Program-made: the position numbers and the translations under genes
DNA from: Promethearchaeota archaeon
Lineage (GTDB): Archaea; Asgardarchaeota; Lokiarchaeia; Sigyniarchaeales; SOKP01
Length of the DNA: 31,621 bases
Direction of reading: 5' to 3'
Assembly: GCA_019057795.1 (NCBI GenBank)
Contig: JAHLWS010000054.1
Coordinates: 1-31,621, forward strand
The notes under the pieces: generated by a model
Told to the model about the DNA's origin: nothing
Seen by the model: the letters and a program-made list of their open reading frames with translations, nothing else
The model's database searches: none
In this document: positions 17,340 through 19,218 of the stretch, one piece after another
Layout: each line of letters starts with the position of its first letter
Position numbering within the stretch: position 1 is the stretch's first letter

Positions 17340-17972
17340 TTATTTCCCTGCTAACGCTTTAATATGTCTGACTCCATCGACAGCGTCATCTGCGAAATCA
17401 TCCGCGCCCAACCGCTTAGCAAGTTCCATGTTCAAAGGAGCTCCGCCAACGATTAATTTTACACTATCCCTAAGACCTGCTACTTTTAAAGCTTCGTGAA
17501 CGCTTTTAATTTGCTCGACAGTCATAGTCAATAGGGAACTTAACGCTATGATTGTTGCCCCAGTTTCCTTTACCTTATCGACAATAACATCTGCATCGAC
17601 ATCCATTCCCAAATCATGTAATTCAAAACCACTACTTAATAGTAATGAGCCTAAAATATTTTTTCCGATATCGTGATTGTCGCCCTTTACAGTTGCTAAA
17701 ATTATCTTAGTTTTGTCTACTGACCTATCAGAAGCTGCTAAAGCAGGTTGGAGCACTTTAAACGCTTCTTTCATGGTTTCCCCCGCTAATACTAGCTCAG
17801 TTAAATAATATTCCTTCTCTTCATATCGCTTCCCTACTTCATCCATTCCTTTTGTTAAAGCGCTTAAGACATCAAATGGATCTTTTCCATCTTCTAAGGC
17901 TTCCTTCACTGCGGCTTCAATATCATCTACTTCTAACTCAATTATTAATTCTGTTAATTTTTCAAAATCCAA
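17340..17972 (-). CDS. Corrinoid (cobalamin-binding) protein of methyltransferase systems (MtaC/MttC-like)
   Basis: B12 cap domain (GMDEVG..YE..EYYL), GDNHDIGKNI (DxHxxG), LSSL and VGGAP. TTG start after a GGGGG RBS-like run. Confidence 0.92.
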   Translation of the reverse strand: MDFEKLTELIIELEVDDIEAAVKEALEDGKDPFDVLSALTKGMDEVGKRYEEKEYYLTELVLAGETMKEAFKVLQPALAASDRSVDKTKIILATVKGDNHDIGKNILGSLLLSSGFELHDLGMDVDADVIVDKVKETGATIIALSSLLTMTVEQIKSVHEALKVAGLRDSVKLIVGGAPLNMELAKRLGADDFADDAVDGVRHIKALAGK

Positions 17973-18159: not shown

Positions 18160-18323
18160 AAAAAAAGGAGAAGAGAGGAAAAGTCGGAAATTGAACCTCA
18201 ATAAGAGGTTAAATTTTGGATAAAATTTAGTTCCGTACGTTACCATTTAAATTTTCCCTCCGACGGGGAAACCCGTTCGAAATAGGAAATTAGGGGATAT
18301 TTATAATTTGCGACTTCCTCTCT
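18160..18323 (-). ncRNA. Candidate structured ncRNA of unknown family (~150-165 nt); strand tentative
   Basis: GC-enriched island in AT-rich intergenic DNA. The ends pair (18172-18192 with 18305-18323) and there are internal hairpins. A TATA-like box lies 29 nt upstream and a U7 tract lies downstream on the minus strand. Confidence 0.55.
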
Positions 18324-18344
18324 AATAACATTGTAACACGACAA

Positions 18345-18358
18345 TATTTAAACTTTTG
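18345..18358 (-). promoter_or_regulatory. Putative BRE-TATA promoter of the ncRNA candidate
   Basis: Minus strand CAAAAG-TTTAAATA, with the first T 29 nt upstream of the paired 5' end at 18323. Confidence 0.4.
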
Positions 18359-18474: not shown

Positions 18475-19218
18475 ATGGAGAAAGAATTTCTAGAGCCTAC
18501 TGAATTAGAAGATATCGATAGTTTAAACGAAATTAGAGAGGAAAACATTGTTATCTTAACTAAAAATTTATTTAAAAATTATGAAATTGGAGATTTTATT
18601 GTAAAAGCCGTATGTGATGTAAATCTGAAAATAAAAGAGAGAGATTTCATCGTTTTTAAAGGTCCGTCAGGAGCAGGTAAAACTACTTTACTAAATTTAA
18701 TTGGAGGGTTAGATTCTCCTAACGAAGGCACGATTTTTTCAAATGGGGTCAAAATTTCCGATTTACAAGAAGAATCACTCTCTATATTTAGATTAATTAA
18801 CACCGGATTCGTTTTCCAGAACTATAATCTTATTAGCACTTTAACTGCTGAAGAAAATTTGATGTTCCCGATGAATTTAGCTGGAATGACCCTAAAAGAG
18901 CAAAGAGAGAAAGCATTAAGTTTACTGAAAAAAGTAGGTTTAGGGGATAGAAGAGAACACTTACCATTTCAACTTTCGGCTGGTGAACAACAGAGGGTAG
19001 CAATAGCAAGAGCGTTAGCAAACGATCCTCCAATTATTTTGGCAGATGAGCCTACAGCCAACCTCGATAAAAATACAAGTATGTTTATACGAGATCTATT
19101 TAATGATATGAAAAAGGATGGTAAAACGATTCTAATAGCAACACACGACGATTTTTTAATAAAACTTGCAAATCGCATCATAACTTTTGAAGATGGTAAG
19201 ATCACAAGTGAAGAGTAG
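18475..19218 (+). CDS. ABC transporter ATP-binding protein (LolD/MacB-like)
   Basis: Walker A GPSGAGKTT, GFVFQ, LSAGEQQRVAIARAL, LADEPT and ATHD. Confidence 0.93.
   Translation: MEKEFLEPTELEDIDSLNEIREENIVILTKNLFKNYEIGDFIVKAVCDVNLKIKERDFIVFKGPSGAGKTTLLNLIGGLDSPNEGTIFSNGVKISDLQEESLSIFRLINTGFVFQNYNLISTLTAEENLMFPMNLAGMTLKEQREKALSLLKKVGLGDRREHLPFQLSAGEQQRVAIARALANDPPIILADEPTANLDKNTSMFIRDLFNDMKKDGKTILIATHDDFLIKLANRIITFEDGKITSEE

Follow-up and report, generated by a model that had tools for sequence, protein, structure and literature searches.

Among the Firmicutes, RsaE/RoxS and the 'UCCC' sRNAs of Staphylococcus place unpaired C-rich motifs, present in several copies per RNA, on G-rich Shine-Dalgarno sequences. 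These C-rich sRNAs are bacterial, and their seeds of 4-8 nt act on many unrelated mRNAs. Of the archaeal sRNAs, Methanosarcina mazei sRNA162 acts in trans by masking ribosome-binding sites (PMC3510493). M. mazei sRNA41, another trans-acting sRNA that masks such sites, is described as acting on several related leaders (PMC5867862), and other archaeal sRNAs with a mechanism of the ribosome-binding-site masking type have been reviewed (PMC5867862, PMC4152357). Haloferax volcanii sRNA132 and s479 are described as linked to phosphate and zinc ABC transporters (PMC6560208, PMC8155600). For the Asgard archaea, the closest known relatives of eukaryotes, a literature search turned up no published regulatory RNA. 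The RNA gene described below, from a Promethearchaeota genome, is predicted to define a new family of a known kind, the trans base-pairing sRNAs.

The gene lies in a window of 31,621 nt (the whole stretch of DNA that was analysed), in an intergenic gap of 500 nt between two divergent genes. To its left is a gene for a B12-binding (corrinoid) protein (17340-17972, minus strand; Pfam B12-binding and B12-binding_2), and to its right an ABC ATPase gene (18475-19218, plus strand), followed by that of an FtsX-type permease. (The start codon of the B12-binding gene, at 17970-17972, is TTG after AAAGGGGAAAAAAAU in the window's genome and its closest relatives, and ATG in more distant ones.) With its U tail, the structured RNA gene occupies 18160-18325 of the window on the minus strand and is marked by a BRE/TATA box, a closing helix, hairpins and a U7 run. 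The small RNA itself would be ~160 nt long (18163-18325, minus; covariance-model match of 121 bits, E 3.9e-19), with its 5' end predicted near 18323-18325 and its 3' end within the U run. The putative promoter (18345-18358) consists of a purine-rich BRE, CAAAAG (18353-18358), and the TATA box TTTAAATA (18345-18352), and the oligo-U (T7) terminator lies at 18160-18166, after the closing helix.

The closing helix, P1, joins AGAGAGGAAGUCGCAAAUU (18305-18323) to AAUUUCCGACUUUUCCUCUCU (18172-18192) on the minus strand. It was first read as AGAGAGGAAAAGTCGGAAATT with AATTTGCGACTTCCTCTCT, 19 bp with a bulge of 2 nt and one C.C/G.G mismatch, and all of the helices and hairpins that the sequence-only reading had proposed are present in the sequence where it placed them. 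Within P1, again on the minus strand, come an invariant pyrimidine-rich 'seed', AUAUCCCCUAAUUUCCUA (18283-18300), which is kept across the family and whose perfect complement is found in MFS leaders of genus g18; a lineage-specific insertion of ~30 nt (18253-18282); a second invariant unpaired block, AUUUAAAUGGUAAC (18239-18252), of which AAUGGUAA is preserved in nearly all members and for which no pairing partner was found; and the hairpins P2 and P3. P2 (18210-18229) is AAAUUUU-AUCC-AAAAUUU, initially read as TAAATTTT-GGAT-AAAATTTA, and P3 (18194-18210) is AACCUC-UUAUU-GAGGUU, initially read as AACCTC-AATAA-GAGGTT. The fold is more stable than expected from shuffled sequences on either strand (z = -4.4 for plus and -4.5 for minus; 0/200 shuffles equally stable), and the 4.95-Mb genome has one copy of the element.

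Homologues found by BLAST in relatives within the genus likewise number one per genome, and a covariance model (R1) was built from 16 such homologues with a hand-assigned structure comprising P1, P2 and P3. R1 matched 36/42 genomes of the genus, one match each, and 107/131 genomes of the family, which spans seven genera, in nearly all cases as a single copy. There were no matches in 19 genomes from other families of the order, nor in 125 genomes from a phylum-wide sample of 26 other families. The RNA was likewise not found in the closed genomes G044 and G055 of family f2. To score the helices, 41 distinct sequences covering the seven genera were aligned under guidance of the model. Standard pairs fill 87.7% of pair cells against 71.1% in shuffled alignments, 23/27 pairs change on both sides, and the covariation score of 0.451 (0.192 shuffled) was reached by 0/500 shuffles. 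When the 3' partners were slid by 1-3 columns as a control, the score was at most 0.131. All 12 modelled pairs of P1 change on both sides. Fitting the alignment to the model favours the structure, yet P3 by itself occurs in six stem versions (CCUC/GAGG, CAGG/CCUG, AGCC/GGCU, AACC/GGUU, CCUU/AAGG and AAUC/GAUU). In P2, A-U pairs are swapped to G-C in one subgroup, and the loop and stem are lost or altered in several genera. The element is thereby confirmed as a genuine single-copy gene encoding a folded RNA, and one Asgard (Promethearchaeota) family has kept it in more than 100 genomes. The suggestion made from the window alone, a novel small RNA of Asgard archaea whose ends are closed and followed by a U tail, is borne out by the covarying helices, the single copy, the minus-strand signals and the lack of an Rfam match. 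(The RNA also turns up under unexpected labels. A 164-bit copy is found on contig L145, DATKTW010000107.1, which is labelled 'Candidatus Nanopelagicaceae bacterium' and is probably mis-binned, and several MAGs labelled Hodarchaeota, Hermodarchaeota, Thorarchaeota or Odinarchaeota that have it are probably mislabelled.)

The most conserved portion of the RNA is a nearly invariant, unpaired and pyrimidine-rich stretch of 32 nt, AAUAUCCCCUAAUUUCCUAAUUAAAUGGUAAC. In relatives, the probability of being unpaired is 0.71-0.74 for the seed, against 0.39-0.55 over the whole RNA. Different lineages carry optional hairpins at three fixed insertion points. Among them is the ACGGG-GAAA-CCCGT hairpin (18263-18276) of the window's insertion, which is present as had been described but lies outside the conserved RNA: it is found only in the window's genome and one other species, and 34/36 genus members are without it. 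On the RNA, the 3' part of the insertion reads AGGGAAAAUU and pairs with one half of the seed, UUUCCU, so that in the window's copy the probability of UUUCCU being unpaired drops to 0.1 and only the AUAUCCCCUAA half remains open. Since hairpin insertions in several lineages pair with the seed itself, the seed could normally sit within a structured core rather than being free.

What does the invariant strand pair with? An exact scan for the 18-mer ATATCCCCTAATTTCCTA in one genome per species returned 69 loci, of which ~55 are the RNA gene itself. At seven other Asgard loci, the 18-mer stands directly beside 'CAT', and the opposite strand reads as the leader (...AAUUAGGAAAUUAGGGGAUAU-N2-3-AUG) of a gene for a 428-aa MFS_1/MFS_3 transporter. 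Target-type MFS genes form tandem arrays of DHA3/EntS-like paralogues. In 30 loci with 58 MFS starts, the motif leader precedes about 35, and its duplexes with the seed are predicted at -19 to -38 kcal/mol; these arrays also include a second MFS subfamily, whose leaders are of the ordinary GGUGA Shine-Dalgarno kind and whose energies are -2 to -11 kcal/mol. (The arrays, L184-L213, for example G099:C24:38649-43925 and G140:C18:3169-8722, hold 3-5 MFS_1/MFS_3 paralogues, each with its own A-rich leader, and a single array can mix the AAUUAGGAAAUUAGGGGAUAU type and the GGUGA type.)

The sites are restricted to the family that has the RNA. Searched across the order with up to one mismatch, a 17-mer of the motif was confined to that family, with 0/19 genomes of other families having it. 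In the sister genus g18 (54 genomes), a hand tally gave ~47 sites apart from the RNA gene, and a reversed control pattern gave 3; the sites lie mostly on contigs with MFS arrays, with the complement 3-4 nt before the AUG. In one g18 genome that has both partners (G140), the RNA and the leader can form 21 contiguous Watson-Crick pairs over positions -24 to -4 of the AUG, so the Shine-Dalgarno GGGG is covered; the predicted duplex energy is -37.8 kcal/mol, and the leader by itself is unstructured. In the commonest internal variants of the leader, GGAGAUU and GGGAAUU, pairing with the seed persists via G.U. Within the window's own genus (g1), proper sites upstream of MFS genes were found in only two genomes (G025 and G032), most of the genus having no canonical site, and none were found in g21, g22, g23, g27 or g28. 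Taken genome by genome, a complementary site at a translation start accompanies the RNA in g18, G025 and G032, and does not in the window's genome and five other genera.

The element probably encodes an autonomous regulatory RNA of ~160 nt, which most likely acts in trans through an antisense seed that masks the ribosome-binding sites of MFS transporter genes. Transcription would start 22-23 nt after the BRE/TATA box and stop at the U7 run. P1, P2 and P3 would form a scaffold that keeps the 32-nt strand open, and this strand would then pair with the purine-rich leaders AAUUAGGAAAUUAGGGGAUAU-N3-AUG, over the Shine-Dalgarno sequence, blocking translation initiation and probably exposing the mRNA to decay. 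The visible targets of such an RNA would be the tandem MFS (DHA3/EntS-like) genes of g18 and of a few species of the window's genus. The accessible seed within a scaffold that is expected of a base-pairing sRNA is found here, in that the seed is invariant and the scaffold covaries.

For the window's own genome, the picture is different. Searches with the 21-mer at up to 4 mismatches, and 11-mer diagonal searches with the whole unpaired region, gave nothing usable there, and a k-mer-seeded duplex scan gave only a continuum, with the best non-self site at -24.7 kcal/mol. The nearest MFS homologues in this genome (43% and 39% identity) have unrelated leaders. An 18-nt AT-rich match before an HExxH gene (G000:C67:30867-31398) decays in the orthologues of close relatives and was therefore judged a chance AT-rich match. 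(The HExxH gene encodes 166 aa, is conserved in 123/135 family genomes and starts with TTG in the window's genome.) Another site, at C22:58162, with 2 mismatches (AATTAGGAAAATAAGGGATAT), falls in a non-coding, purine-rich stretch that no gene follows. (That stretch, at G000:C22:58000-58340, is ~600 nt long with repeated TAGGA/GGAAT-like words.) The neighbouring genes also fail as targets: the ABC ATPase leader gives energies of -4 to -17 kcal/mol with no common site, and the leaders of the B12-binding gene differ by subclade, again with no common site. Complementarity to 16S/23S rRNA is no better than that of shuffled seeds. Covariation between the two molecules was also sought. One g21 copy (L067) has AAUUCCU in its seed, and the matching leader was not found in that genome; hits in G074 and G116 fall within coding regions. 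The near-matches in g19, g28 and g21 (G071, G130, G107) and the one in G108 are either coding or hard to assign. With no matching leader and half of its seed folded away, the window's copy would have to act on weaker sites, or via the open AUAUCCCCUAA half, or with another partner.

Thus, the seed outlives its visible targets, being invariant even where complementary leaders are gone, the window's species included. Since it is invariant in genera without canonical sites, the MFS leaders cannot be its sole partner and are perhaps not the ancestral one. An MFS regulon fits the RNA in the sister genus but not the family-wide conservation of the seed, which points to a further partner, either a protein or shorter targets. 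One form of this idea, unlikely but deserving of attention, is that the RNA is a scaffold or ligand for a protein, as an RNP component or a sponge, with the invariant strand including AAAUGGUAAC as the protein-binding site and with the MFS pairing secondary and lineage-specific. The seed and the adjoining AAAUGGUAAC are indeed invariant where no complementary leader exists, AAAUGGUAAC lies outside the MFS duplex, and optional hairpins at fixed junctions are typical of structured RNP RNAs. On the other hand, no candidate protein partner was found: no TROVE/Ro protein is present, and the only constant neighbour is an ABC/FtsX transporter. Moreover, a perfect 21-nt match to ~47 start-proximal sites is very unlikely to be incidental. 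Somewhat less probable again is that the RNA forms the core of an as yet unknown Asgard RNP, or interacts with a ligand or the ribosome, so that the conserved strand would be an active site or protein platform and the MFS pairing derived. This reading draws on the invariance of the strand in seven genera, mostly without leaders, on the fixed-junction hairpins, and on the internal pairing of the seed in several lineages.

The shared 21-bp motif could also be seen as DNA rather than RNA, namely as an operator for a factor that controls both the MFS genes and the RNA locus, with the RNA complementarity as a by-product. The motif does form a direct repeat (TTAGGAAA TTAGGGGA), and at the MFS genes it sits between the AT-rich promoter region and the ATG, a frequent position for archaeal repressors. 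Within the RNA gene, however, it is found ~25-45 nt inside a transcribed, structured unit, and an insertion of 25-35 nt, forming a paired-arm hairpin, interrupts it in 10 or more lineages. Such an insertion would destroy the spacing of an operator, whereas RNA pairing tolerates the split. The leader variants are biased to G.U-compatible changes, and conservation in the RNA reaches past the shared motif, all of which makes an operator improbable.

The preferred reading, an antisense seed acting in trans, places transcription on the minus strand. Could it be the plus strand instead? The plus strand carries a copy of the MFS leader (UAGGAAAUUAGGGGAUAU) and might serve as a decoy for whatever binds that leader. 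It folds more stably in 19/20 homologues, by 4.8 kcal/mol on average, some helix extensions are G.U on plus and A.C on minus, and the window's insertion has a GAAA tetraloop, which had been taken to favour plus. The loop is there, but the argument rests on a lineage-specific insert, and an insertion in g23 has a GNRA loop (GUAA) on the minus strand. Overall, the counts of G.U versus A.C (51 versus 41 and 71 versus 50) lean mildly to minus, a difference that is uninformative for the strand, and the P1 duplex energies are -413 kcal/mol for minus versus -399 for plus. What speaks for the minus strand is the conservation there of the transcription signals, rather than the helix counts. A AAAGTTTAWATA-type BRE/TATA box stands 22-23 nt ahead of the first helix base in nearly all of the 20 + 15 + 20 homologues inspected; the spacer between box and helix varies, and the flanks diverge. 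Similarly, in nearly all of them the minus strand has a run of T5-T9 beginning 5-10 nt past P1, a few runs being shorter or interrupted, so that the BRE/TATA box and U7 described from the window are kept in nearly all homologues. The plus strand of the homologues has no promoter at a conserved fixed spacing and no T run of at least 5 after the helix. Finally, in one relative of the same genus (L019), the whole unit is inverted, and the borders of the inverted segment coincide exactly with the BRE and the T run of the minus strand. Expression from the minus strand, as deduced from these sequence signals, is the assignment adopted here, and a plus-strand decoy seems very doubtful.

The inverted unit bears equally on whether the RNA is a gene in its own right. 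It had been suggested that the element might be an attenuating leader of the B12-binding gene, and in a wider form it could be any cis-acting leader, attenuator or riboswitch of that gene. In most genomes, the RNA does precede the B12-binding gene and share its direction, and five species have GAAGUCAGAAAU, from the RNA's 5' helix strand, a second time in the leader of that gene. However, neither position nor orientation is fixed, and different genera have different genes downstream. In L019 and L060 (genus g21), the unit from promoter to terminator runs the other way relative to both neighbours, two independent inversions (L019:1497-1706 and L060:2501-2631) between the same flanking genes, and the B12-binding gene does not adjoin the RNA in genera g22, g27 and g28, leaving the ABC/FtsX transporter pair as the sole constant neighbour across the family. 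Where the B12-binding gene does follow, the spacer is 95-190 nt and the gene has its own TATA box ~30 nt before the ATG in many relatives. A terminator comes directly after the closing helix in nearly all members, and no cobalamin or other riboswitch model, nor any other Rfam aptamer, matches. From the inversions and the three genera in which the neighbour is missing, the RNA appears to be an autonomous gene with its own promoter and terminator, the independent transcription unit expected of a trans-encoded sRNA, and the leader or riboswitch proposal, given up here, is hardly credible.

The region between the RNA and the B12-binding gene has some features of its own. L060 has ~850 nt of extra sequence between the RNA unit and the B12-binding gene. 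In L003, L008, L011, L013 and L014, the last 15 nt of the corrinoid-gene leader are AAAGAGAAGUCAGAA-AUG, a feature confined to that subclade, and in those five species the 3' helix strand of the RNA could pair with the corrinoid-gene ribosome-binding site via the repeated GAAGUCAGAAAU. Across L003-L014, a conserved imperfect palindrome, AAAATATTTATCTTAAGTAAGATATTTTAT, is found ~40-75 nt before the start of the B12-binding gene, just upstream of a TTAAATAT box, and has the appearance of an operator that overlaps the promoter of the corrinoid gene; in this group, several B12-binding genes seem to be leaderless or to have a duplicated ATGGATTTT.

Two further ideas can be dismissed with little hesitation, a mobile element (MITE) and a small-protein gene whose start codon would be the conserved AUG of AAAUGGUAAC: the ends do resemble inverted repeats and the window's copy has an open frame of 34 codons after the AUG, but the single copy per genome, without the dispersed copies of a MITE, and the constant ABC/FtsX neighbour across the family exclude the former, and a frame that varies from 5 to more than 35 codons, with frame-shifting indels, no Shine-Dalgarno sequence and substitutions that are compensatory in helices rather than synonymous, makes a peptide unlikely.

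The RNA also stands apart from the known classes of structured RNA. From the window alone, it had not been matched to tRNA, 5S, SRP, RNase P or a known riboswitch. Rfam release 15 at gathering thresholds, run on the whole window, gave no match; at E up to 10 it gave noise alone (miRNA; CRISPR-DR58 at E 3.1; lncRNA); and ARAGORN found no tRNA or tmRNA genes. A closed 5'/3' helix and a U tail give it a likeness to Y RNA, but there is no Rfam match, and the genome, estimated to be 100% complete, has no TROVE protein (PF05731), so it is not a Y RNA. The plus strand of the element includes a GAGGAAAAGUCGG string like that of RNase P CR-I, but the RNase P RNA model (RF00373) has no match at the element, and since the genuine gene is on another contig (G000:C56:30912-31235, 123.5 bits), an RNase P identity is rejected. 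As for guide RNAs of the C/D box or H/ACA type, inspection of the RNA strand found no conserved boxes, and complementarity to rRNA is at the shuffled level.

Asgard archaea thus gain a family-wide small RNA that is supported by covariation and has a testable predicted mechanism, a 21-nt antisense match covering the Shine-Dalgarno sequences of tandem MFS genes of the efflux type. The covariance model and the motif together allow the RNA to be annotated in more than 100 MAGs and provide a handle for mining metatranscriptomes.

How does the Asgard RNA compare with the systems described at the outset? With the H. volcanii RNAs sRNA132 and s479, it has in common that it is an archaeal sRNA with transporter mRNAs as proposed targets, but the sequences are unrelated, the pairing mode differs, and the leaders are those of MFS rather than ABC transporters. 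It resembles the C-rich sRNAs of the Firmicutes in its several unpaired C-rich motifs (UAUCCCC, UUUCCU and, in the P2 loop, UAUCCC), which would pair with G-rich Shine-Dalgarno sequences, but differs from them in having a single extended match of 21 nt, on the leaders of paralogous transporter genes. The sRNA162 and sRNA41 of M. mazei are similar in design. Like these, the Asgard RNA, as predicted from its sequence, is intergenic, has its own promoter, and exposes an unpaired region complementary to the ribosome-binding sites of its targets. Unlike them, it belongs to the Promethearchaeota, has no relation to either in sequence or structure, and combines a much longer perfect match, of 21 nt, with a long closing helix.
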